Shown: positions 53 through 53,591, counted from the stretch's first letter. The stretch is 64,000 nucleotides of DNA from Phycisphaerae bacterium (GCA_050115495.1 JASFQK010000019.1:1-64000), one strand, 5' to 3'. Made by a program: numbers and translations. Notes: generated from the letters alone by a model not told the origin.

Positions 53-126
53 GGCTGTATCCTCCTGCAAAGAAGAAGACACGCCAAGCTATCATACGTT
101 AGCGTATTTGTGAGGCACTACACTAG
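1..126 (-). mobile_element. Left end of a probable IS630-family insertion sequence (continues beyond the window edge)
   Basis: Minus strand reads CTAGTGTAGTGCCTCACAAATACG from 126, with a TA at 124-125 (IS630 elements target TA). An AGGAGG RBS and an ORF start follow, with an IS630-like N-terminus. The catalytic domain is outside the window. Confidence 0.55.
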
Positions 127-375
127 ATTCCGACGCCCGCTGCGCGGGCCGCGCTGCGCGAGAGCAGGTGAACCGTGAAGCAGTGGAACAGGTAACGCAA
201 CCGCGCGGTTGCTCCGCGGCGTGCAGATCACCAGCCATTGGCAGGTGCCACACTCCCCTGCGGGCGCGGCGACGCGAGAGACAAGACGGGTTCCGCAGCG
301 AAGAGACACCAGCGGTCGAGGTCGGGGTAGGACAGCATTCCATCGCTGCTAGCGGGCGCTCACCCTGGAGGCTGG

Positions 376-39379: not shown

Positions 39380-40159
39380 ATGACGACGACACCGGGCATG
39401 GACGACAGGGACACGGACGGCGGGTCGTATCAGCCGGGCGGCTTCTGTCCGCATTGCGGCTATGCGATGGATGCCGGCCGCTGCCCCGAGTGCGGCCGCC
39501 TCGTCAGCGCGAGGCAACTGGACACGGTGCCCTTCGCCAGACGGCAACGCCGGCGGCGAAGGAGAATCGTCCTCGCGGCCAGCCTCATCGCTCTGCCGCT
39601 TCTGGCGTGGTACTCGTGGGAAGGCGTCGTGCCCTCGTTGTGGCGGTGGGCACCGACGAGCATGGCGATCGGCTCGTTCGCCCGAGGCAGCTGGGACGCC
39701 GGAGTGGAGGTCGCCGAGCGTTTCGTCGCCGGCAAGCTCAGCCAGGCAGAGGCCAACGCGTTCTTCGACGCCGCCCTGCGCGTTGAAGGGCCGGCCACGC
39801 TCTCGATGCTCGGCGACGATTCCGCGGAGTGGCGGCTCTCGATCCAACTGACGCAGAGGCTGCCAGACGTCGCGAGGCCGGGGTGGTCGTTGCACCTGAC
39901 GCACTGGGAGTTGCGCGCCGACAACGGTGTCGTGGCGGGCGAGGACGACGAGGTCGCTTCGTGGAGCACCAGGGCATCTCATGTGGCCTTCGGCCTCCAT
40001 GGCGTGGAGAGACTACCCGCCGACAGACCGATGGTCGTTCGGTTCACGCTGGAACTGCACTGCTCCGGCATGGCGTACCGTGGGGGCGCGGCGCCTCTGC
40101 ACGTCTGGAATCTGGACGTGCCGGCGACCGTGCCCCATCCGGCGTCCACTCAGCCGTGA
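39380..40159 (+). CDS. Zn-ribbon membrane protein (hypothetical)
   Basis: CPHCGY...RCPECG, Arg-rich stretch, one TM segment. GGAGG RBS. Confidence 0.75.
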   Translation: MTTTPGMDDRDTDGGSYQPGGFCPHCGYAMDAGRCPECGRLVSARQLDTVPFARRQRRRRRRIVLAASLIALPLLAWYSWEGVVPSLWRWAPTSMAIGSFARGSWDAGVEVAERFVAGKLSQAEANAFFDAALRVEGPATLSMLGDDSAEWRLSIQLTQRLPDVARPGWSLHLTHWELRADNGVVAGEDDEVASWSTRASHVAFGLHGVERLPADRPMVVRFTLELHCSGMAYRGGAAPLHVWNLDVPATVPHPASTQP

Positions 40160-40180: not shown

Positions 40181-41722
40181 TCAGCGGTGGACGTCGATGG
40201 TCTTCTCCAGCTCGATTCGGCGGGACCAGGTGGCCGCTGAGGGGAGGGTGGCGGTTTCGTCGTCGTGCCACTCGCCTTTCCAGGCGGTGAGGTTGGGACC
40301 GACGGCGAAGTAGAGCACCGCGCGGACACGTAGCGGACCAGGCTGTGTGGGCGTGATGGAGGCCTGAATGCGCGATAGACCGCTGGCCACGAATTTGGCA
40401 TGCTCGCCGCGCTCCCGCTGCCCCAGCGGGGCAGGGTCGTCACCGAAGAAGAAGCCGCCGAAGTACACGGCCGGATCGAGGCCGAAGGGCGTGCGGCTGC
40501 GGCGGTAGGTTGAGCTAAGATGCACGTGCAGCGGCTCTCCCACCACGGCGGTCGCCGGAGCGTCGATCCGGACGTCGAGCATCTCGCCGTAGTAGCGCTC
40601 CGTAACGTCCGGAGGCAGCAGACTGGCGGACACCTGGCCCCACAACCAGCCGCCCTGGACCATATCGAGGTAGTCCTGTTCAAGTCGTTTGTCGAGCAGG
40701 CCGACCGCTAGCTGCCGTCGTTGCTCCGGCGACAGACGCCGGCCCAGCAGTTCGCTCCACTCTGCACGCGTGAAGCCGTCGTCGGCCACGGCGTCGTTGA
40801 TGAGCGCCCCGGTCGGAAGGGTGCGCAGCACCAAGCCGCGCACAGAAGCCGGTGACAGCATCATCAGGATCATCGGCAGCGCCGCCGCCGCCAGGAAGGC
40901 CACTGCCAACCACAGATGATGCGGCTGGCGGGATGGCTTCCCGATGATCATGCCGCCGGGGAGGCTCCAGTCCATGCCACACTCGGGGCAACGCCGGGGG
41001 TTCAGGCCGGAAGGCGCTTGCTGATAGCCGCAGGCCACGCAGTGCCGCGAGTTGCCGGTCCGGCGGCGATACCGGTTCAGGTAGATCAGCCCGGTGCACA
41101 GAAAGACCACCGCCAGCAACATCGGCCCATAGAGGAACAGCAGACCGGTGAGGCTGACACCGCCCAGCCAGTGCATCAGCAGAAACGCCACCGTGAAGAG
41201 GGCGACGCACAGGGCTACGGTGACCAGGATGTGCTCGCGGAGGATCGCCAGCAGACGCTGGAGACGCTGGTTCCATACCGGCGGCAACAGCGGCGGGGCC
41301 AGCCGCAACGGTGTGAACACGTAATTGAGCCAATAGGATGGTAGATCGGCCCGCACGTATGGGCGACGGCACTTGGGACACTTGCCCGCCGGCACGTCCT
41401 CCGGCACCGGTCGGCGGCAGCGGGGACAGATGTAGCCGTCGTGCTTCGGCACCTCACGCAACACGGTGCGCGCGATATGAAGGCGGCGTCCGAGCTGCGC
41501 GAAGATGATCGCCGGCACGACGACGCCCGTCGCGACTAACAGGAAAAGGAGTTCGTCTCTGCACGCGGCGGCCAGTGCCCCGCCCTTCCACGTGATGCCC
41601 CACACGAAGATGCCAACGGGTACGATGGCCCCCAACACGCGCCCGATGTAGCCCAACCACAGACGACGTATCCGCCGCTGTAAGCTCTGGGCCCAGATGT
41701 TGTCCGGATCGTGCCAGTTCAT
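40181..41722 (-). CDS. Multi-TM membrane protein with two Zn-ribbons (hypothetical)
   Basis: CPRC..CPKC and CVACGY..RCPECG, with about five TM segments. Confidence 0.75.
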   Translation of the reverse strand: MNWHDPDNIWAQSLQRRIRRLWLGYIGRVLGAIVPVGIFVWGITWKGGALAAACRDELLFLLVATGVVVPAIIFAQLGRRLHIARTVLREVPKHDGYICPRCRRPVPEDVPAGKCPKCRRPYVRADLPSYWLNYVFTPLRLAPPLLPPVWNQRLQRLLAILREHILVTVALCVALFTVAFLLMHWLGGVSLTGLLFLYGPMLLAVVFLCTGLIYLNRYRRRTGNSRHCVACGYQQAPSGLNPRRCPECGMDWSLPGGMIIGKPSRQPHHLWLAVAFLAAAALPMILMMLSPASVRGLVLRTLPTGALINDAVADDGFTRAEWSELLGRRLSPEQRRQLAVGLLDKRLEQDYLDMVQGGWLWGQVSASLLPPDVTERYYGEMLDVRIDAPATAVVGEPLHVHLSSTYRRSRTPFGLDPAVYFGGFFFGDDPAPLGQRERGEHAKFVASGLSRIQASITPTQPGPLRVRAVLYFAVGPNLTAWKGEWHDDETATLPSAATWSRRIELEKTIDVHR

Positions 41723-41956
41723 ACGTCTATCCCCCTGGAGACCCGGTGTACCCACGGGCCGCGGCACCGCCCCGCGTTCCCCAGAGGCCGTCATCCTACT
41801 CGTTTGCCGGCTGCCCCGCCGCCCCGCAAGTCGCCCCCGGCAGAAAGCGTGCCCGACCGCCGGCCCGCCGGTACAGCCCCCCCGGCCCGTCCCGGAGAAC
41901 TTCGTCGGGTTCGACGTTTCGCGGCTTGGTGTGGCCTGGGGCGGTCGGCTACGCGG

Positions 41957-43739: not shown

Positions 43740-44506
43740 CCGCCTTGCTCCATACGGGTCCAATCGGTGTGATCAATCCTCACGTTCGCGTGCGGCTCAT
43801 CGTTGCGCACACTTCCACCCCTAACGTTGACCGACGAATCGCCCGTCAACGCGGCGGCGCTGCCCGCGGTGTCCCTCAATGGACGGACACACGCGTGTTG
43901 CGCACGCGCTGCAGCGCTGCCTGGCCTCTCATACGCGACGACGACTCTCGCCCCGCCTAGCGCCAGCCGGCGCGCCCGGTCGACGAGGCAGGTGTTCCGT
44001 GAGTGGCTGTCGCCATTCGCGGGATTTCGCCTCGTACGCATCCGAGCACGCGCCACCTTAGCAGCGATGCCATGCCGCAGTCAAGGGCGCGGTTTCCCCT
44101 GATAGGGCGTGTTGCGACCACCGCCGCCGTTCTGTGGCGTGCACAACTGCCCGCGCGTGACCGTACGCGGCGACGATCGTATCGTGTCCCGGTTGCACCG
44201 AGCGCGGCCAGCGGTCGGGGATAAGAGCCGTCCAGCCGGTTGGACAGCGGTTGCGGGAGTTGTACAATGCTACAGTCGTTGTCACCGGGAGGGTTCGGGC
44301 CATGTCTCGGCGACGCCCCAACTTGATGACTTCGCGCGGTGCGCAGCACCATGACCAGCCACGCCGCGCCACGAGGGGCACCGGCGGAATCGGGGAAGTA
44401 CCAGTCCGGGTGTAGATCCGCACGCCGCAGCCGCGGCCTCGCCCTCCATGACGCAGTTTGCCGGCAATGCGAACACGGCCACACGCGCCGTGCGGAGGAT
44501 GCACGC

Positions 44507-46117
44507 ATGCCAGACGCAACGGAAGAGAAGAAACTGCTGACGGAGCCGATCGGGGTGGCCATGTCCGGTGGCGGATACCGGGCGGCCGCGTTTCACTTGG
44601 GCACGCTGTCGTACTTGCACGATCTGCGCGACGCCGACCTGCTGCCCCCCGTCGCCATGATCTCGACCGTCTCGGGCGGAACGTTCACCGGCGTGCGCTA
44701 CGCCCTGGCCCTGGCGAAAAGCGAGCCGTTCCCGGCGTTCTTCACCAGCTTCTACACGTACCTCCAGGGGTCGAACCTGTTCAGGAAAGCCATGGACCGG
44801 CTGAGTCGCGGAGACCTCGGCCCGGGCGAGAAGCGCCGCGACATCATCGTTGCCCTGGCCGAAGTCTATTCGACCGACTTCCTCGCCGACGAGCACGGAC
44901 AGCCGTACCAGTTCGAGAAGATCCAGACCGCCCAGACCGCGTTGCGGGCGGCGATCTTCAATGCGACCGAGTTCCGCCAGGGCGGCGCGTTCCGTTTCCA
45001 GAGCGCGCCCGGAACACAGGCCCGCATCGGCAACCGCTACGTCAACATTCCGAAGGATGAGGCGGGCCACATTCGCCTGGGCGACATCGTGGCCGCCTCA
45101 TCGTGCTTCCCCGGCGGGTTCGAGCCAATCGCCTTTCCGGATGACTTCGGCTGGCCCGAAGGGAAGATTCCGCCCGCCGTGCGCCAGCGTTTCCCGAAAC
45201 CCGTCGCGCTGATGGATGGCGGCATCTACGACAACCAGGGCATCGAGAGTCTCCTGTACGCCGACGACCGTGACCCCGCGGATCTCGGTCTGTTCATCAT
45301 CTCCGACGTGGATCGGCAACCGGAGGACATCTACCCGATGCCACCCGACGTGCAGCTCGGCAAGCTGGGGGACACGCCCCTCGGTAGGCTCCACCGGCTG
45401 GCGTGGGTCTGGATGCTCGCCTGCCTGATAACGGCGTGCGTCGTGGGCGTGCAGTTGGCAACAGCCGAGCACTTCACCGTCTGGAACTACTTCTCGCACG
45501 TGGTGCCGCTGATCCTCGCCCTCGCCACCGCGGGGCTGCTCATCGCCGGTCTGTGGGTCTCCCGCCGGATCGGCGAGCGGATGCGGACGAGCGTCAAGCT
45601 GGAGTGGCGTGATTTCCGAAAGATCACGCTGGGCCAGGCCGTCACGATGCTCTACCTCCGCGGCACGTCGCTCCTGGCCATGGCCCAGGCCGTGTTCATG
45701 CACCGCATCCGTCAACTCGTCTACGGGCTCGTGTACAAGGACGATCGCTACAAGGACAAGCGCGTGTCCTGCCTGGTGTACGGCTTGCAGAAGCCGGCGA
45801 AAGAGCTGGCGGGCCTGGTGCCGCCGCCGTCGGAGAAGCTCGGCCGGGTCGTCAAAGCGGCGGTTGAGATGCCGACGACGTTGTGGTTCTGCGATCCGCA
45901 TGAGCTGCCGTGCCTGGTCGCCTGCGGGCAAGCTACGTTGTGCTACAACCTGATGAAGTGGGTCGTGCGGCAATATGGCGGCGACCCGGCGGCGCTCGCC
46001 GATCCGCCGGTCGGACCGCTGTTGGAGCGACTGAAGACGGACTGGCAGGCGCTGAACGCCGACCCGTACGCCCTGCTCCGCCGGCAGATGCCCGACGCCA
46101 CGCTGGCGGAGCCTTAA
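44507..46117 (+). CDS. Patatin-like phospholipase with internal TM segments
   Basis: SGGGYRA, STVSGG nucleophile elbow, AASSCFPG, DGGIYDNQG. GGAGG RBS. Confidence 0.9.
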   Translation: MPDATEEKKLLTEPIGVAMSGGGYRAAAFHLGTLSYLHDLRDADLLPPVAMISTVSGGTFTGVRYALALAKSEPFPAFFTSFYTYLQGSNLFRKAMDRLSRGDLGPGEKRRDIIVALAEVYSTDFLADEHGQPYQFEKIQTAQTALRAAIFNATEFRQGGAFRFQSAPGTQARIGNRYVNIPKDEAGHIRLGDIVAASSCFPGGFEPIAFPDDFGWPEGKIPPAVRQRFPKPVALMDGGIYDNQGIESLLYADDRDPADLGLFIISDVDRQPEDIYPMPPDVQLGKLGDTPLGRLHRLAWVWMLACLITACVVGVQLATAEHFTVWNYFSHVVPLILALATAGLLIAGLWVSRRIGERMRTSVKLEWRDFRKITLGQAVTMLYLRGTSLLAMAQAVFMHRIRQLVYGLVYKDDRYKDKRVSCLVYGLQKPAKELAGLVPPPSEKLGRVVKAAVEMPTTLWFCDPHELPCLVACGQATLCYNLMKWVVRQYGGDPAALADPPVGPLLERLKTDWQALNADPYALLRRQMPDATLAEP

Positions 46118-46162: not shown

Positions 46163-46738
46163 ATGGCACTGGGGCTTTTCAGCGACATGATTGACGCTCT
46201 CGGCAACGTCGTGGGCAAGTTGAAGTCCATCGCCACGTTTCCGAAGGCACAGCGCGAGGCGATCCGCCAGCCGTTGGACGAGACCTGCCGTCTGATCGAT
46301 ACAACGCTCAACATGGTGATCATCCGGCTGGGCGACATCCTGCTGGAAAGCCAGGACGAAGTCCTGCTCAAGGAGGCCGCCCGGCTAGACAACTTCGAGG
46401 CGTGGATGAACGCCGAACGCGAGTTCCGGCTGTGCCGCAGCCTGCGTGTGGCGGAGCGTGAGATGACAACGCTGGCCGGCAAAGTCGGCGGCGCGATCAG
46501 CACGAAGGACTGGGAAGCGTTACTGGAGCACGTGCGGACCGTCCTCGCCGCCGAGGACCACGTCGCGGTGTTCATCTGCCGGCAGTTCGAGCGGTTGGCT
46601 GGTGACGCCGGTGACGCCAACCCGGGGACCCAGGCAGCGCGGGAGGTGCGCGACACGCTGACCGCGTTCCGCGCCGCCCTGGTCAGCGAGCGGCAAGCGC
46701 TCATCCAGCATGAACGGGCCCTCTACGACGTCATCTGA
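46163..46738 (+). CDS. Hypothetical alpha-helical protein
   Basis: GAAGGAGA RBS, typical codon usage, no recognisable motif. Confidence 0.75.
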   Translation: MALGLFSDMIDALGNVVGKLKSIATFPKAQREAIRQPLDETCRLIDTTLNMVIIRLGDILLESQDEVLLKEAARLDNFEAWMNAEREFRLCRSLRVAEREMTTLAGKVGGAISTKDWEALLEHVRTVLAAEDHVAVFICRQFERLAGDAGDANPGTQAAREVRDTLTAFRAALVSERQALIQHERALYDVI

Positions 46739-46867: not shown

Positions 46868-46873
46868 TATAAT
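46868..46873 (+). promoter_or_regulatory. Possible -10 element for the lipoprotein/rSAM operon
   Basis: Perfect TATAAT in a GC-rich intergenic region 50 bp upstream of the first paralog. No clear -35. Confidence 0.4.
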
Positions 46874-46923
46874 GGGACATACCGGCTGAGGGGTCGTCGC
46901 TGCATACATACGGAGACGTGCGG

Positions 46924-47841
46924 ATGGCGAGCTTGGACTGCAAACGGTCGCTTAACGCCCGCCAGCCGGGGTACCCCACCAAACTCCAAGTGCTCGGCCG
47001 CCCCCAACTCCTGGCGAGGCACGTACCGCGGACATGGTTGTCTCGCCATGAGATCACGGCGGCGATGGGTCTGCTATTGGCCGGTAGCTCCGGCGGATGC
47101 CGGGATGGCGCGGGGCCGCCGACCGGAGATAATCCCGCCAAACAGCCGGCGGTCGCCTCGCCGATCTGGCCACACGGCGACGGCCTTGCGGAGCTGTACG
47201 CCGGCTGGCTCGGCGCTCCCCCCATCGCGGTGTACCTGACCGAGGATCAGAGCCTGGAGATCATCCGCGAGGAACTGGCCCGCGGCGGAGTACATCTGGC
47301 GCCGCCGGGAACCTCGCCGCCCACGATTCACGTTCCCTATGTTCGCTGGACGACCGAGCACGAGTGGGTGTCCGAGGACTTCAGATGCGTACCGGCCGAG
47401 GCGCGCTTGCCCTTTGCGCTGGATCTGGCCAGCGAGCAACCGGCGATCTACGTGGAATACATCTCCCAGGAGGACTACCTGCCACAAAACGAGAACGCGG
47501 CGTTAGGGTATGTTGGGCAGGATCTCCAAGGCTTCGCCGGGATCGTGGCTCGCGAGGTCGAACGCCAGTGTAGCGGCGCGTACTGCGGCGTCTTCTACGA
47601 CCCGGTGATCTATCGCGACGACCGCTTCTTCTCCGGTCGCGAGCCGCCGGAGGAGCTTCTCCAGGCGATGAAGGAAGCTCAGACGGAGGCGCAGCGCGAG
47701 GAAGTCTACGAGATGGCCTGCGAGTATACCGACCGTGCCAACAAAGCCGACGAAGAGCGTGCCCGTGGCGAGTCCGCGGAGCTCCTCCGTCAACAAGTCC
47801 GTGACTTCGTCGAGTGGCTCAAGGGGCAGGGGGTGATCTAG
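46924..47841 (+). CDS. rSAM-associated putative lipoprotein, paralog 1
   Basis: GGAG RBS, PGYPT leader, SGGC, PIWPHGDG, LTEDQSLEIIREEL, GVFYDP, LLRQQVRDFVEWLKGQGVI*. Confidence 0.85.
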   Translation: MASLDCKRSLNARQPGYPTKLQVLGRPQLLARHVPRTWLSRHEITAAMGLLLAGSSGGCRDGAGPPTGDNPAKQPAVASPIWPHGDGLAELYAGWLGAPPIAVYLTEDQSLEIIREELARGGVHLAPPGTSPPTIHVPYVRWTTEHEWVSEDFRCVPAEARLPFALDLASEQPAIYVEYISQEDYLPQNENAALGYVGQDLQGFAGIVAREVERQCSGAYCGVFYDPVIYRDDRFFSGREPPEELLQAMKEAQTEAQREEVYEMACEYTDRANKADEERARGESAELLRQQVRDFVEWLKGQGVI

Positions 47842-48617
47842 TGGCGTGCACGCTTCCATGTCGGCCACAACAGCGTGCGGCGCCGTGGGCGCGGAAGGTG
47901 ATCGGTGCGCTCCTGGCGGCGGCGAGCGTCGCTCTGGTCGCCGGTTGCGGGGATTCGGACTCGGCGACGCACAAGGCAGCAGTGGTGGCCCCGGTTTTCA
48001 AGCATGGGGAGGGCTTGGACGTTTGCCGCTGCTCACCTTTCACTGCGTCCATCGTCCTCTCCGAGGACGATGCCCTTCTCATCATCGCCGAAGAACTGCG
48101 GCTGCACGGCGTCGCGCTGTCCAAGCGCAGCGTCGAGATGCCGTCCGTCATTGTGTCGCGGCGCGAGCGTCGACCAGGATACGAGTGGACGTCCGGCCGT
48201 GCAAGCGGCCACTTCGTCCGCTTCGACGCACCCCTGGAATTCGATGGCGTAGACGCTGAGCGGCGTGTGGCAGTTGAGTTCGTCTCCTGTGGCGACTACG
48301 ACGGTCTAGCCGGCCCCTGGTTCAACGAAGACCCCTATGTCTGGACCGGGCCGGGCGAACTGCAGCGGGCCGCCGGCTACGTCGCGGACTGCGTGCGCGG
48401 GCAACCGGAGACCGTCTACTTCGGCGTGTTCTACGACCCGCTGGAGTGCCCGCTGGACTATGACGAGTTCTCGCGCCGCCACGGTACCGCCGGCCCCGGC
48501 CGCCCCGAGCCGTCGTGGGACGAGGTCGAACAGGAAGCCAGGGAACGGTCTGTGGAGCTCCTGCGCCAGCAGGTACGCGACTTCGTCGAGTGGCTCCAGG
48601 GTCAGGGGGTGATCTAG
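47841..48617 (+). CDS. rSAM-associated putative lipoprotein, paralog 2
   Basis: GTG overlaps the TAG of paralog 1. LVAGC lipobox, VAPVFKHGEG, GVFYDP, LLRQQVRDFVEWLQGQGVI*. Confidence 0.85.
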   Translation: MACTLPCRPQQRAAPWARKVIGALLAAASVALVAGCGDSDSATHKAAVVAPVFKHGEGLDVCRCSPFTASIVLSEDDALLIIAEELRLHGVALSKRSVEMPSVIVSRRERRPGYEWTSGRASGHFVRFDAPLEFDGVDAERRVAVEFVSCGDYDGLAGPWFNEDPYVWTGPGELQRAAGYVADCVRGQPETVYFGVFYDPLECPLDYDEFSRRHGTAGPGRPEPSWDEVEQEARERSVELLRQQVRDFVEWLQGQGVI

Positions 48618-49411
48618 TGGCTTATGCCCTTTCATGCCGGCCGCAACGATACGCGGCGCCGTGGGTGCGGAAGATGATCGGTGCGCTCCTGGCGGCGGCG
48701 AGCGCCGCTCTGGTCGCCGGTTGCGGCGATTCGGGCTCGGCGACGCGTGCCGCGACGCAGCCGGCGACGAACCACGCGGCGGTGGTGGCTCCGCTGTTCG
48801 AGCATGGCGAAGGTCGCACCATCGACCTATCGGCCCCCCTATCAGAAGATGAGGCCTTCCAAATCATCAGCGAGGAGTTGCGGCAGCACGGTGTCTTCCT
48901 CACTGCGCGTAACATCGAGTTGCCGTCGATCCTCGTGGAGCGGCGTGAGTACCAGGAGAAGTATGACTGGATCTCCGGGCTGTCCTCGACCGGGTACGTG
49001 TATTTCAACACGCCTTTGAGCGCCGATGGAATGGACCCGAATCGACGGGTGGCGGTCGAGTTCGCATCGGCCGACGATGTCTATGGACTTGCCGGTCCCT
49101 GGCGGCAGCAGATGGCGCGGTCCTCGGTGATCAGGTACGAACTGAAGCCAGTCGCCCGCTACGTGGCAGATCACGCCCGCGGGCGGCCGGCGGGGGTCTA
49201 CTTCGGCGTGTTCTACGACCCGTTGGAGGGCCACTTCGACTACGACGAGTTCGATCGACGCTGCAAGGCAATCGGCGCCCTGCCCTCCAGCATGCAGGCG
49301 ATGCAGATCCAGATGATGTTGGAGCGCGAAGTCAAGAACCGATCTGTGCCTTTCCTCCGTCAGCAGGTTCGCGATTTCGTTGAATGGCTCAAGGGCCAGG
49401 GGGTGATCTGA
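48617..49411 (+). CDS. rSAM-associated putative lipoprotein, paralog 3
   Basis: TAGTG overlap. LVAGC, VAPLFEHGEG, GVFYDP, FLRQQVRDFVEWLKGQGVI*. Confidence 0.85.
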   Translation: MAYALSCRPQRYAAPWVRKMIGALLAAASAALVAGCGDSGSATRAATQPATNHAAVVAPLFEHGEGRTIDLSAPLSEDEAFQIISEELRQHGVFLTARNIELPSILVERREYQEKYDWISGLSSTGYVYFNTPLSADGMDPNRRVAVEFASADDVYGLAGPWRQQMARSSVIRYELKPVARYVADHARGRPAGVYFGVFYDPLEGHFDYDEFDRRCKAIGALPSSMQAMQIQMMLEREVKNRSVPFLRQQVRDFVEWLKGQGVI

Positions 49412-50289
49412 TGACCGACCGCGCCCGGTGCCGGCTGCGGCGATGTGCCAGGCCGCCGGCGTATCCCACGAAGCTCGAAGTTCTGGCATTGCCGAGGCTG
49501 CTCAAAGCGCACCAGCCGCCGGCGTGGATGGCGAATGGTACGATTCTGGCGGCCACGAGCGCCTTTCTGGCGGCCAATGTCGCCGGCTGTCACAGTCCGG
49601 CGCCGACATCCGGAACGCAACCACCGCCACCGAGCAAGGCCCCCGCTATCGTCGCTCCGCTCTTCGAGCACGGCGACGGCCGCGGCTCCGCCGGCTGCGT
49701 CGCGGTCAGCCCGCCGGTGTTCCTTTCCGAGGAAGAGGCGCTCCAAATCATCGTCGAGGAGCTTCAGCCGCACGGGATTGAGCTGTCGGGCCACGACGTC
49801 GAGTTGCCGTCCGTCATCGTGAAGCACAAGGAGTTTCGGCAGGAACAGGATGGCCGGCGCCAGGGTGGCCGATGGGTGCAGTTCGAGGCTCCCTTGCATG
49901 CCGACGGCGTGGATTCCGAGCACCACATCGCCGTCGAGTTCGCCTCCCGGGACGACTTCGACGACCTAGCGGGCCCGTGGTACGCGGAGGGCGTGTACTG
50001 CACGGCGACGTTCTTCGACATGAGGGAGGTCGCCGGCTATGTAGCAGATCAGGCGCGCGGGCGGCCGGAGGGCGTGTACTTCGGCGTGTTCTACGACCCG
50101 CTGGAGGGACGACTGGACTTCGCCGAGTTCCGCCGGCGTTCGCTCGCTGCTAACGGCACGTTGGACCGGCAGCGACATCGGCAGGTCCATGAAGAACTGA
50201 GCGAACAAGGCAAGAACAAGTCCGCGGAACTCCTTCGCCAGCAGGTTCGGGACTTCGTCGAATGGCTCAAGGGACAGGGGGTGATCTGA
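49411..50289 (+). CDS. rSAM-associated putative lipoprotein, paralog 4
   Basis: TGATG overlap. PAYPT leader, VAGC, HGDGRGSAGCVAVSPPVFLSEEEA, GVFYDP, conserved C-terminus. Confidence 0.85.
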   Translation: MTDRARCRLRRCARPPAYPTKLEVLALPRLLKAHQPPAWMANGTILAATSAFLAANVAGCHSPAPTSGTQPPPPSKAPAIVAPLFEHGDGRGSAGCVAVSPPVFLSEEEALQIIVEELQPHGIELSGHDVELPSVIVKHKEFRQEQDGRRQGGRWVQFEAPLHADGVDSEHHIAVEFASRDDFDDLAGPWYAEGVYCTATFFDMREVAGYVADQARGRPEGVYFGVFYDPLEGRLDFAEFRRRSLAANGTLDRQRHRQVHEELSEQGKNKSAELLRQQVRDFVEWLKGQGVI

Positions 50290-50291
50290 TT

Positions 50292-51170
50292 GTGGCGAGG
50301 CTGGGGGTGAGACCGATTCGACGTTCGTCGTGGCCGGCGTATCCGACGGCGCTGCAGGTCAGGGCCCGGCCCGGCCTGCGGCGGCGGCACCAGCCGGCGG
50401 CGGGGCGGGCGAATCGCGAACTGGCCGTGGCCGCCGGCCTGCTCGCTTCGGCCCAACTCGCCGGCTGCGACCGGTCGGCGGCGACCCCACGCTCCGCCAC
50501 GCTCGGTCCCGAAGCGCCCGCCGTGGTCGCTCCGCTCTTCCTCCATGGCAAGGGCCGCGGGGCGGAGGGCTGCGTCGTCATGACGCCGCCGACCTTCCTG
50601 TCCGAAGAAGAGGCGCGACAGATCATTAGTGAAGAGCTGGCCCGTAGCGGCATAGAAGCCACGCAAGAGGATGTCGAATTCGCGGAGGTTCGCGTGCCGC
50701 GGCGGTACATCCGGTACTCGTGTGATGAGGACCGGAGCAACCTGCAGAGAAACATCGTTGAGAGCGTCGAGGAAGCTCAAGTCCTCTCCGTGGACTTCGT
50801 GGACGTAGAGCATCAAGTCGCAGTTGAGTTCGTTTCCTTCGACGATTTCCACGGCGTCGGCGGTCCCATCGACGGCTCGACGCTCGTTGTATACGACTTG
50901 AGAGAAACGGCGTCCTACCTGCGCTCGCAGGTGGAGAGTACCACCACCGGTACCTACATCGGCATCTTCTACGATCCGGCGACAGACCCGAGCCAGTTTA
51001 CCAGGTGGGCCGAACTCGACGGTCCACCCAGCGTAACCACTGCCCTCAAACGGACCTTCCAGAGACACGACGACGAGCGCGAGCAACTGGCGGCAGAAGA
51101 GGCCGAGCGGCTTCTCCGCCAGCAGGTTCGGGATTTCATCGAATGGCTCAAGGGCCAGGGGGTGATTTGA
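50292..51170 (+). CDS. rSAM-associated putative lipoprotein, paralog 5
   Basis: GTG 2 nt after the previous stop. PAYPT leader, LAGC, HGKGRGAEGCVVMTPPTFLSEEEA, GIFYDP, LLRQQVRDFIEWLKGQGVI*. Confidence 0.85.
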   Translation: MARLGVRPIRRSSWPAYPTALQVRARPGLRRRHQPAAGRANRELAVAAGLLASAQLAGCDRSAATPRSATLGPEAPAVVAPLFLHGKGRGAEGCVVMTPPTFLSEEEARQIISEELARSGIEATQEDVEFAEVRVPRRYIRYSCDEDRSNLQRNIVESVEEAQVLSVDFVDVEHQVAVEFVSFDDFHGVGGPIDGSTLVVYDLRETASYLRSQVESTTTGTYIGIFYDPATDPSQFTRWAELDGPPSVTTALKRTFQRHDDEREQLAAEEAERLLRQQVRDFIEWLKGQGVI

Positions 51171-51172
51171 AT

Positions 51173-52306
51173 ATGCACCTGACGCTGCACCTGACGACGG
51201 CCTGCAACATGCGGTGCTCGTACTGCTATGCGCCGCCCAGGGACGGGGCGCCCATGAGCGAGGACGTCGCCCGCGCCGCCGTCGATCTCGGGGCCCGCCT
51301 GTCCACCGGCTCGTGCGGCATCGTCTTCTTCGGCGGCGAGCCGCTGCTGTGCAAGGAGCGCATCGCCGACACCGTCGCCTACGCCCGCCGGCGGGAACGC
51401 GACGGTGACCAGCGCTACCACTTCAAGATCACGACGAACGGCCTGGCCCTTGACGATGACTGGCTGGATTACGCCATCCGCAACGACATCCTCGTCGCCA
51501 TGAGCTTCGACGGCGTGCGGGCGGCACACGACGCGCACCGGCGATTGCCGAACGGCCGCAGCTCGTACGATGTGCTGCTCGCCCGGCTCAAGGCTCTGCT
51601 GGCCGTTCGCCCGTACGCCAGCGTGCTGACCACGGTGAACCCGGACACGGCCCAGTACCTGGCCGAGTCGATCGAGCTGCTCATCGACCTCGACGTGCGC
51701 TACCCCATCGTCTCGCCGAACTACGCCGGCGACTGGACCGAAGCCGACTTCCGCGTGCTCCAGAAGCAGTACCAGCGGCTCGGCCGGCGTTACATCGAGT
51801 GGACGCGGGCTGGGCGCAAGTTCTACCTCAGCCCGTTCGAGGTGAAGCTGTCGTCGCACATCAACCGGCACTGCTGGCAGAAGGAGCGCTGCGAACTGGC
51901 CCAGCGGCAGATCTCCGTCGACCCGCAGGGCTACCTGTTCCCGTGCGTGCAATTCCCGCGGGCCGGGAAGGACAGCCGCTGGTGCATCGGCCACGTCTCG
52001 ACCGGGATCGACGAAACGGCGCGCCAGGCGCTGCACGATGAATCGGAGGCGGAGAAGGAAACCTGTCGCGGCTGCGCTCTAGCCGACCGTTGCCACAACA
52101 CCTGCGGCTGCCTGAACTGGCAGACGACCGGCACGGTCAACGGCATCTCGCCGGTGCTCTGCCGCCACGAGCAGATGCTGATCCCCATCGCCGACCGCGT
52201 GGGCGAGAAGCTGTACAAGAAGCGGGACCCGCTGTTCCTGCACAAGCACTACAACTCGGCGTACCCGGTACTGTCGCTGCTGGAAGATGTGCTGGTGAAG
52301 AAATGA
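51173..52306 (+). CDS. Radical SAM/SPASM domain protein (putative protein/peptide maturase)
   Basis: CNMRCSYC (CxxxCxxC), FFGGEPLL, TTNG, SFDG. SPASM: C..GYLFPC, CRGC-x5-C-x3-CGC..C. Confidence 0.93.
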   Translation: MHLTLHLTTACNMRCSYCYAPPRDGAPMSEDVARAAVDLGARLSTGSCGIVFFGGEPLLCKERIADTVAYARRRERDGDQRYHFKITTNGLALDDDWLDYAIRNDILVAMSFDGVRAAHDAHRRLPNGRSSYDVLLARLKALLAVRPYASVLTTVNPDTAQYLAESIELLIDLDVRYPIVSPNYAGDWTEADFRVLQKQYQRLGRRYIEWTRAGRKFYLSPFEVKLSSHINRHCWQKERCELAQRQISVDPQGYLFPCVQFPRAGKDSRWCIGHVSTGIDETARQALHDESEAEKETCRGCALADRCHNTCGCLNWQTTGTVNGISPVLCRHEQMLIPIADRVGEKLYKKRDPLFLHKHYNSAYPVLSLLEDVLVKK

Positions 52307-52821
52307 GCGTGCACACGGTGGTGGGGACGGCGCTGCGGCTGACCCGCCGGACGGTCATCGTGCTGCTGTTCCTGGCTGCGCTGGCGACGCTGGGGACGGG
52401 CATCGTCAGCTACTGGCAGGGCATTCCCGGCGACACGTTGTGGATCAACACCGAGGATGAACAGCCCCGCGTATACGTGGCGATGATCCGCGGCGACCTG
52501 CACGCCGTGTACTCCCGGCCGAGCAACGCCGGGGCGTCGCGGTACCGGCAGGATCTCGGGCCGTTCATGTACAAGCACGTGGGCATCGGCAGCATCGACG
52601 CGGTCGGCGTGAGTCTGCCGTTCTGGTCGCTGTTCGCCGTGCTGCTCTTCATCCCCCTGCTGGCCTTTGTCAGCGGCCCGGTCCGCCGGTGGCGATGGCG
52701 CCGGCAGGGCCGCTGCCTCCACTGCGGCTACAACCTGACCGGCCTGGCGGAGCTGCGCTGCCCGGAGTGCGGGCAGCCGTTCAAGCCGCGGTCGGCTTCC
52801 GCAACAGCCGATAAGCAGTAG
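52303..52821 (+). CDS. Membrane protein with C-terminal Zn-ribbon
   Basis: ATGA overlap with the rSAM stop. Two TM segments, then RRWRWRRQGRCLHCGYNLTG..RCPECG. Confidence 0.8.
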   Translation: MSVHTVVGTALRLTRRTVIVLLFLAALATLGTGIVSYWQGIPGDTLWINTEDEQPRVYVAMIRGDLHAVYSRPSNAGASRYRQDLGPFMYKHVGIGSIDAVGVSLPFWSLFAVLLFIPLLAFVSGPVRRWRWRRQGRCLHCGYNLTGLAELRCPECGQPFKPRSASATADKQ

Positions 52822-53042: not shown

Positions 53043-53591
53043 GTGACCCTGCAACTGCTCGCCATATGCGTGCTCATTGTCATCGCGCGCATCGCCGACG
53101 TTTCGCTCGGCACCATTCGCACCATCTGCGTCGTCCAGGGACGGGCGGCGCTCGCCTGGGTGCTGGCTTTCATGGAGATCCTCATCTGGATCTTCGTCGT
53201 GTCGAGAGTGATCACGAACCTGGATACGCCGGCCTACGCCATCGCCTATGCGCTCGGCTACGCCACGGGCAACTTCGTCGGCATCACGCTGGAGAAACGC
53301 CTCGCCTTCGGCCGGCAGGTGGTACGCATCTTCACGCGGGCGGCCGGGACCGTGCCCCGGCTGCGCGAGCTGGGCTATCGCGTCACCGAATTCACGGGCC
53401 GCGGCCGCGACGGCGCGGTCGAACTGCTGTTCATCGAGACCACCCGGCGGGAGGCACCGCGCCTGCTGGAATGCGCCGCCGAAGCTGACCCGCAGTGCTA
53501 CTACCTGGTGGACGACATCCGCCTGGCGGCCAACCCGGCGGCCCTGCGCCAGCGCTCCACCGGCTGGTGGGGCGTGTTCAAGAAGAAGTAG
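53043..53591 (+). CDS. UPF0316/DUF5698-DUF2179 membrane protein
   Basis: ARIADVSLGTIRT, EILIW, YALGYATGNFVGI.LE, LRELGYRVT..G.G. Confidence 0.88.
   Translation: MTLQLLAICVLIVIARIADVSLGTIRTICVVQGRAALAWVLAFMEILIWIFVVSRVITNLDTPAYAIAYALGYATGNFVGITLEKRLAFGRQVVRIFTRAAGTVPRLRELGYRVTEFTGRGRDGAVELLFIETTRREAPRLLECAAEADPQCYYLVDDIRLAANPAALRQRSTGWWGVFKKK

Follow-up and report, generated by a model that had tools for sequence, protein, structure and literature searches.

Several radical S-adenosylmethionine (SAM) enzymes with a SPASM domain act, guided by a leader, on the product of an adjacent gene, among them CteB (PDB 5WGG/5WHY), PapB (NF047865), QhpD/QhpC and CrpC/CrpA (PMC13692751, accessible portion), of which QhpD and CrpC act on proteins. 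Here we describe a locus with the same fold and arrangement, a run of seven open reading frames (ORFs) at positions 46924-52821 of Phycisphaerae bacterium GCA_050115495.1 JASFQK010000019.1:1-64000 (the window, 64,000 nucleotides (nt) in all), in which five paralogs of an exported protein, the partner, are followed by a radical SAM/SPASM enzyme (P0006) and a Zn-ribbon membrane ORF (P0007). Judging by sequence comparison, partner and enzyme very probably form a two-gene, leader-dependent protein-maturation module. The pair appears to be a real, widespread and undescribed variant of radical SAM protein maturation, and there is a fair chance that its chemistry is new; it is possible, though we hold this tentatively, that exported proteins of anaerobic bacteria here receive, from an undescribed and widespread enzyme class, a backbone modification at glycine that is itself new. 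Compared with CteB, PapB, QhpD and CrpC, the enzyme lacks the recognition element (RRE) of pathways for ribosomally made, post-translationally altered peptides (RiPPs), has eight rather than seven conserved SPASM cysteines and carries Val at the position of CteB His363, whereas the partners have one conserved Cys or none and an export signal behind the leader.

Anaerobic sulfatase maturases recognize the sulfatase substrate motif CxPxR, and anSME is said to have an eight-Cys SPASM domain. Like P0006, anSME (PDB 4K36-4K39; TIGR03942) is an RRE-less radical SAM/SPASM enzyme, of similar size and fold, that modifies a protein; here, however, the core reads C-V-x-V-x-P-P with no CxPxR, and a dedicated leader is present. 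An earlier, sequence-only reading of this DNA had seen no sulfatase nearby, and the genome's nine Sulfatase matches all lie on other contigs. The triceptide synthase ChlB reportedly makes cyclophanes on short peptides. This radical SAM/SPASM enzyme of ~375 amino acids (aa) has been solved with its precursor leader bound (PDB 9GM3), but its sequence match to P0006 is weak (49.5 bits) and the partners here have no conserved aromatic three-residue motif. The TIGR04133/TIGR04134 system also pairs a radical SAM/SPASM gene with a putative lipoprotein gene; identity with it was rejected, since P0006 scores 38.7 bits against TIGR04133 (cut-off 425) and nothing in the array matches TIGR04134 at E ≤ 10. 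As the sequence-only reading had suspected, no existing Pfam or NCBIfam family, TIGR04133/TIGR04134 included, covers the pair.

In the DAG-RiPPs (PMC13056109, portions available), RiPP-type modification is followed by lipoprotein processing, including in proteins >30 kDa, and the present array likewise sets, by pattern, a precursor with a signal peptidase II (SPII) signal beside a RiPP-type enzyme. Those systems are described for MNIO enzymes, the words "radical" and "SPASM" occurring 0 times in the main text, and within the same portions their precursors are expected to be leader-independent or to use a follower. In contrast, the leader here stands before the signal peptide, so that, if our reading is true, an N-terminal leader is combined with signal-peptide export, an arrangement thought unlikely in that paper. 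The accessible part of PMC8939145 concerns other lipoproteins, in graspetide loci. We found no account of the enzyme-partner pair in the open literature searched, a scope outside which subscription papers and supplements fall.

Association of partner and enzyme

From 80 of 111 confirmed matches in GTDB genomes we obtained 78 loci, spread over many phyla, and the enzyme is present in 75 of them: in 74 it lies downstream of the final family gene, in one upstream. Two of the three enzyme-less loci stop at a contig edge; the third (L017) is an orphan copy, and L020, under the same genome record title, does have the enzyme. Partner copies number one in 44 loci, two in 22, three in 8, four in 3 and eight in 1. 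In the reverse direction, among 80 metagenome loci, the partner lies directly upstream of 10 of the 11 top-scoring enzymes, and the eleventh enzyme begins at a contig edge. The co-occurrence expected on first reading is thus borne out from both sides. No third conserved gene (transporter, peptidase or short precursor) was found in the 78 loci.

The module is carried by Planctomycetota, Bacillota (among them cellulolytic and gut species), Armatimonadota, Verrucomicrobiota, Myxococcota and others, and the nearest named enzyme homologs belong to Phycisphaerae and other Planctomycetota. Its occurrence is patchy, with 4 of 41 relatives and 5 of 301 genomes of the phylum having it (own genome counted). 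In two same-genus genomes the locus has decayed (L003, G002:C71; L002, G003:C175): the partner has a stop codon, and a deletion runs from partner residue 188 to enzyme residue 295. Because this deletion spans both genes, partner and enzyme were lost together. The Zn-ribbon gene downstream at L003 likewise has a stop.

The Zn-ribbon gene was first read as overlapping the enzyme gene, which it does; a close P0007 homolog stands behind the enzyme, however, in only 2 of 158 loci, plus L003, and the many genome-wide tblastn matches to P0007 reveal a large in-genome family. On these two grounds the gene was rejected as a core part, and P0007 is probably a lineage-specific passenger. Zn-ribbon membrane paralogs with CxxCGY...CPECG also lie at window positions 39380-40159 and 40181-41794 and on many other contigs.

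Partner anatomy and predicted leader recognition

Paralog 4 (P0004) has 672 homologs, and the partner family, spread over many phyla, comprises 1,878 clusters at 50% identity. Pfam and NCBIfam return zero matches for the five paralogs and only weak chance matches for 117 aligned homologs, and a PDB sequence search with the family profile gave nothing significant. Alignments of 121 and 358 sequences reveal an N-terminal leader of ~35 residues that precedes the export signal and passed unmentioned in the sequence-only reading, with the consensus M-x-x-x-P-V-x-x-Y-x-x-P-x-Y-P-T...P-x-L-L...P-x-x-W (Y18 in 342/358, P19 in 348/358, W39 in 336/358). A hydrophobic signal follows, with a lipobox Cys in 234/358 homologs and a signal peptidase I (SPI)-like form in the remainder; some Planctomycete copies have twin arginines in it. 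These signal types were judged by a simple pattern, without a signal-peptide predictor. The same approach finds a lipobox in all five window paralogs (non-canonical in paralog 1) and in 84 of 132 full-length copies. The description of the array as lipoproteins therefore stands as far as the five paralogs go; across the family, where other members are SPI-like or resemble substrates of twin-arginine translocation (Tat), the lipobox is, on these alignments, dispensable and lipidation not essential. In sequence, the lipobox V/L-A-G-C (e.g. window 49579-49590) is similar to the front half of the core motif, φ-x-G-C.

Behind the signal lies the core, HGxGRGxxG95-C96-VxVxPP, in which Gly95 is kept in 337/358 and Cys96 in 336/358 homologs. 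The preceding residue varies (Thr 127, Phe 47, Tyr 29, Ile 26 of 358), and position +2 from the Gly is mostly Val, Ile, Ala or Pro. Each of the 78 loci has one or more Cys-bearing copies (76 by pattern, 2 by eye). Among 29 leader-bearing, Cys-less copies of the main family, 19 keep the core Gly by a strict pattern, in a classification of 368 main-family sequences that left 13 unclassed. A Fimbriimonadaceae locus (L082:4335-9812) holds a nine-gene family array; leader and Gly motif are both retained in six of its copies, which are short and lack the Cys.

The mature domain looks PD-(D/E)XK-like in the AlphaFold model of P0004 (pLDDT, the predicted value of the local distance difference test, 86.7). 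The top six VIA-align rows are all restriction-endonuclease-like folds, led by I-Bth0305I (3R3P) with a middling Z of 7.3 (root-mean-square deviation 3.1, 93 aligned) and NGO0050 (3HRL, Z 6.9); Foldseek gave nothing at E ≤ 0.001, and Atlas feature matches of the PD-(D/E)XK superfamily score 0.80 or less. E109 (317/358), D165 (333/358) and E176 (309/358) are conserved and covary, their positions on helix A, strand 2 and strand 3 being assigned by secondary structure without residue-level superposition. Since D165, E176, S179 and D182 are conserved and covarying in the 358 sequences, a metal site is suggested, and one without the catalytic Lys, as the EXK Lys position (178) is Val in 269, Ile in 55 and Leu in 18 sequences. 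The apparent fold and the acidic cluster are shared with PD-(D/E)XK/Vsr-like nucleases (I-Bth0305I, NGO0050, VRR-NUC), from which the partners differ in being exported, in lacking the EXK Lys and in having large variable insertions; nuclease activity is putative.

The five paralogs of the window are the only family copies in the 5.97-Mb genome. They were first read as five tandem ORFs of 258-305 aa, and these stand, with lengths as called; the quoted motifs (a lipobox-like [AG]GC, P.[FW].HG.G, L[ST]E, G[VI]FYDP and LRQQVRDF[VI]EWL[KQ]GQGVI) are found in all of them. The others share 35-47% identity with paralog 4, and pairwise ratios of nonsynonymous to synonymous substitution rates of ~0.4-0.65 indicate real genes under relaxed purifying selection. 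That all five are substrates holds only in part. The leader occurs in paralogs 1, 4 and 5 and is internally deleted, by one shared deletion, in paralogs 2 and 3; the core Gly-Cys, also unmentioned before, is retained only in paralogs 4 and 5, paralog 1 having the Gly without the Cys and paralogs 2 and 3 keeping the acidic site without the Gly motif. Paralogs 4 and 5 are predicted to be full substrates and paralog 1 a Cys-less one, while paralogs 2 and 3, because both leader and core motif are lost, are probably out of the pathway. A genome-wide search revealed no further leader-bearing substrate outside the array.

To place the leader we modeled P0006 with full-length P0004, three clusters and SAM. 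The complex scores 0.67 (runs 0.74, 0.66 and 0.67) against 0.09 for the best of three controls, and of solved pairs 116 of 157 attain that mark, of mismatched pairs 2 of 215, counts that apply only roughly here. The runs share at least 35% of contacts, with a partner pLDDT of at least 52. The confident interface puts leader residues 9-39, mainly P16-K21, on enzyme residues 229-233 and 341-361, and the model supports direct binding of the leader's PxYPT by the C-terminal helices of the enzyme, an extension that is conserved in the enzyme family.

Diversifying tandem lipoprotein arrays are common without any modification, and the partners may need none: the leader could tether or regulate the enzyme at the membrane, or the enzyme could make a small molecule with the partners as co-regulated binders or immunity-like lipoproteins. 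The persistence of paralogs 2 and 3 without leader or motif and the orphan copy at L017 fit such a role. On the other hand, the leader presumably leaves together with the signal peptide and so could act only before export, no other conserved biosynthetic neighbor was found in the 78 loci, and partners that are unrelated share a Gly motif in their exported part (below). We regard the absence of modification as improbable, the least probable of the readings weighed here, and return to maturation of the partner by the enzyme.

Proposed chemistry at the glycine motif

Placement of the enzyme with peptide and protein maturases, as initially expected, is supported by sequence and fold. The best NCBIfam match of P0006 is PapB NF047865 (219.4 bits, cut-off 340), and its scores for TIGR03974 (151.7 bits, cut-off 425) and anSME TIGR03942 (95.7 bits, cut-off 349) also lie below threshold. 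By sequence and fold the matches are ordered CteB, then anSME and ChlB, with TM values of ~0.8 to CteB and 0.77-0.80 to anSME. P0006 has 10 residues before CxxxCxxC, compared with an outgroup median of 109, and its alignment to CteB begins at CteB residue 99. In a quick-version tree of 89 rows (one row, L054, left out), the RRE-less enzymes form a 57-row clade (Shimodaira-Hasegawa-like approximate likelihood-ratio test, SH-aLRT, 99), apart from a group of 32 rows that are mostly RRE-bearing.

The eighth SPASM Cys, C313, is present in 77/77 main-family, 19/19 sister and 4/4 distant enzymes and in 0/30 RRE-bearing outgroup enzymes. At the CteB His363 position, 73/77 main-family enzymes have Val and 27/30 outgroup enzymes have His, and His is outside the three commonest residues in every clade group. 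The catalytic-site residues Y19, F53, T87, S111, V259 and Q260 correspond to the CteB-type profile F112, F152, T186, S210, H363 and Q364 (PMC10288494, accessible portion), four of them being identical to CteB and the His lost. A seven-Cys SPASM domain leaves iron free for the substrate Cys in a protein thioether former, according to the accessible part of PMC13692751; the eighth Cys, beside an auxiliary-cluster ligand, would argue against such an open-iron mechanism here.

Sister enzymes adjoin exported proteins with a related leader and unrelated mature parts: short Ser/Thr-rich lipoproteins, Cys-rich repeat proteins, shortened PD-(D/E)XK-like forms and Pro/Ala-rich Tat proteins. A leader-only profile scores five of these partners at 11-18.5 bits, compared with ≤2.5 across 30 RRE-bearing loci, and misses others, such as the Ser-rich ones of L130/L131/L150. 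Sixteen sister partners and one Hungatella family member have no Pfam or NCBIfam match above cut-off. The enzymes of short, nearly Cys-free partners (L099, L105-L109) fall within the main-family clade (SH-aLRT 98), on a long branch, and the mature parts of these partners repeat φ-x-G-x-φ-x-φ-P. In a first set of 22 partners, chosen by adjacency and by eye and itself the source of the pattern, the motif takes up 52 of 200 Gly (shuffle mean 23, maximum 42; 2,000 shuffles). In a fresh set of 8 low-complexity partners, two of them near-identical, drawn from 18 newly fetched loci, it takes up 29 of 91 (shuffle mean 8.8, maximum 19; 5,000 shuffles); these eight have 5 Cys in total, and there is free variation at motif positions -1 and +1, with Pro among the residues at -1. 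The remaining 10 fresh loci comprise five fold-type partners, three loci without a recognizable partner, one unclear case and one outgroup-type enzyme with a Cys-rich partner. Within these partner sequences, Gly is the single constant across the enzyme clade.

Cys96 could nonetheless be the target, as a thioether donor (PapB/CteB/QhpD-like) or for conversion to formylglycine (anSME-like), near the acidic metal site. The best family and structure matches of P0006 are thioether formers (NF047865, CteB), four of the six catalytic-site positions are those of CteB, Cys96 is kept in most homologs with a Cys-bearing copy at all 78 loci, and in the 358-sequence alignment residues 93-104 coevolve weakly with 198-199. 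However, enzymes of the same clade adjoin lipoproteins with no or one mature Cys, the CteB His is replaced by Val, the eighth Cys may fill the open iron site, and the partner has no CX3D or CxPxR motif, with enzyme scores far under the PapB and anSME cut-offs. Because the nearly Cys-free partners share the Gly motif, the eighth Cys is present and CteB His363 is absent, Gly-directed chemistry or epimerization is likelier than a PapB-type thioether or formylglycine. The Cys-centered chemistry entertained by the sequence-only reading is accordingly weakened, and we judge it unlikely indeed.

In the chemistry that we favor, by analogy and only tentatively, the Gly Cα would lose a hydrogen, the product would be oxidized to an imine, and the neighboring Cys or some other nucleophile would capture it. 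The auxiliary cluster of anSME is reportedly closed. The partner would be translated with its ~35-aa leader ahead of an SPII, SPI or Tat signal, and in the cytoplasm the RRE-less enzyme would grip PxYPT through its C-terminal helices, as modeled. A 5'-deoxyadenosyl radical may then take the Cα hydrogen from the invariant Gly in a φ-x-G-x-φ-x-φ-(x)-P strand; with Cys313 closing auxiliary cluster I, both auxiliary clusters could relay electrons, by analogy to anSME, as the radical becomes an N-acyl imine. The imine would be trapped as a stable adduct, most simply by the adjacent Cys thiol in the main family (-2 Da) and, in partners free of Cys, by water, sulfur or a backbone atom, after which signal peptidase would cut off leader and signal together to leave a modified, exported PD-(D/E)XK-fold protein. 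The pre-signal, RiPP-style leader may thus be a disposable tag, and one enzyme clade may treat both folded lipoproteins of PD-(D/E)XK-like type and surface proteins of low complexity with multiple motifs, a reading that we put forward as possible rather than probable. Enteropeptin is said to contain a ring between adjacent residues. StsA offers a Cys-to-Gly sactionine precedent (PMC10288494, same portion).

An epimerase served by the same leader is an unlikely alternative, in which Cα-H would be taken near the Gly, most plausibly at +2, and Cys313 would return a hydrogen, yielding D-residues without a mass change. The invariant extra Cys313 recalls EpeE Cys223, which quenches Cα radicals (PMC13012085, accessible portion); the motif tolerates many side chains, with the +2 preference given above, and a D-residue product fits Sec export and repeated motifs. 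Against this, the sole invariant residue, Gly, cannot be epimerized, EpeE is a distant fold match relative to CteB and anSME, and Cys313 lies two residues from a ligand of an auxiliary cluster, of which it may be no more than the fourth ligand. Other Gly-directed chemistries were down-weighted: oxidative backbone cleavage because the domain would be cut off from its export signal, and splicease or cyclopropylglycine chemistry because the residue before Gly varies, the splicease target motif being Tyr-Gly.

Several points weigh against glycine-directed maturation. The complex prediction envisaged on first reading puts the leader on the enzyme and leaves the Gly-Cys core without a confident place in the active site; likeness to the solved ChlB leader complex may, moreover, partly explain why the model passes. 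No partner was recognized within 1.5 kb at L186, L188 and L189, the strict Gly pattern does not fit 10 of the 29 Cys-less copies that carry a leader, and paralogs 2 and 3, with acidic site and no motif, indicate that the domain can persist unmodified. As to mechanism, ligation of a cluster by Cys313 is itself a supposition, an internal nucleophile is not obvious in the Cys-free partners, and if hydrolysis took place at Gly, the chain would be severed from its signal.

If glycine-directed maturation is correct, radical SAM protein modification reaches a large envelope-protein family, beyond the few known cases (anSME, QhpD and CrpC), and an RRE-independent leader-binding site is predicted, probably with new Gly-centered chemistry. 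A portable ~35-aa tag and 8-residue motif would be of use in engineering if they function in proteins that are unrelated, and the two-gene system is directly testable.

Further partner types were seen among relatives of the enzyme. At L191-L198 the leader is followed by a twin-arginine signal and Pro/Ala/Gln-rich repeats, pointing to Tat export of an apparently unstructured protein, and L104:6119-7186, downstream of a sister enzyme, encodes a leader-bearing lipoprotein with Cys-rich repeats each ending I-x-[ED]-G-x-M. At L201 (G025:C7) an outgroup-type radical SAM/SPASM gene precedes a Tat-like Cys-rich repeat protein of ~300 aa, a candidate ranthipeptide-like protein system. The distant eight-Cys enzyme subclade adjoins proteins of ~130-160 aa with GGIRxxHLH and without an obvious signal peptide (L126:450-863, L132:522-950, L165:3353-3838, L128:3328-3717; AGCWP in two); the two tested have no NCBIfam match, and the subclade is possibly a cytoplasmic branch of the Gly-motif system.

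Layout of the locus

Features of the array and its flanks, in window positions unless marked aa.
Feature	Position	Strand	Remarks
Patatin-like protein	44462-46117		flanking gene; family match
191-aa ORF	46163-46738		flanking; without family match
TATAAT, candidate -10 element	46868..46873	+	51 nt before first start codon
GGAG, likely ribosome-binding site	46912..46915	+	8 nt before ATG 46924; putative, from sequence
Paralog 1 (P0001)	46924..47841	+	305 aa; leader, non-canonical lipobox SGGC, core Gly94 kept, Cys replaced, PD-(D/E)XK-like domain
Paralog 2 (P0002)	47841..48617	+	258 aa; leader core deleted, ordinary lipoprotein signal VAGC, core Gly motif lost
Paralog 3 (P0003)	48617..49411	+	264 aa; leader deletion as in paralog 2, VAGC lipobox, core motif deleted
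Paralog 4 (P0004)	49411..50289	+	292 aa; complete: leader aa ~5-39, lipobox Cys60, core Gly95-Cys96
Paralog 4 leader (PxYPT...P..W)	49423..49527	+	modeled on C-terminal helices of the enzyme
Paralog 4 core Gly95-Cys96	49693..49698	+	predicted modification site, from conservation
Paralog 4 PD-(D/E)XK-like domain	aa ~102-292		E107/E109, D165, E176, D182
Paralog 5 (P0005)	50292..51170	+	292 aa; leader with conserved Trp -> Gly, LAGC lipobox
Paralog 5 core Gly93-Cys94	50568-50573	+	
RRE-less radical SAM/SPASM enzyme (P0006)	51173..52306	+	377 aa; C11/C15/C18
P0006 SPASM cysteines			C240, C258, C298, C301, C307, C311, C330 and clade-specific C313
P0006 extra Cys313 codon	52109..52111	+	
P0006 C-terminal helical extension (aa 341-371)	52193..52285	+	predicted leader-binding site, with aa 229-233
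Zn-ribbon membrane protein (P0007)	52303..52821	+	172 aa; overlaps enzyme gene
DUF5698/DUF2179 membrane protein	53043-53591		flanking gene; family match

No link between the three flanking genes and the module was seen. Within the array the close coupling first noted is confirmed: the paralogs and the enzyme gene are joined by three 1-nt overlaps (TAGTG, TAGTG, TGATG) and then two 2-nt gaps, and the enzyme and Zn-ribbon genes by a 4-nt ATGA overlap. The upstream TATAAT is present as first read, but a promoter scan found no full sigma-70 promoter and no -35 consensus. TATAAT is scarce in the 5.97-Mb genome, at 224 copies with both strands counted.

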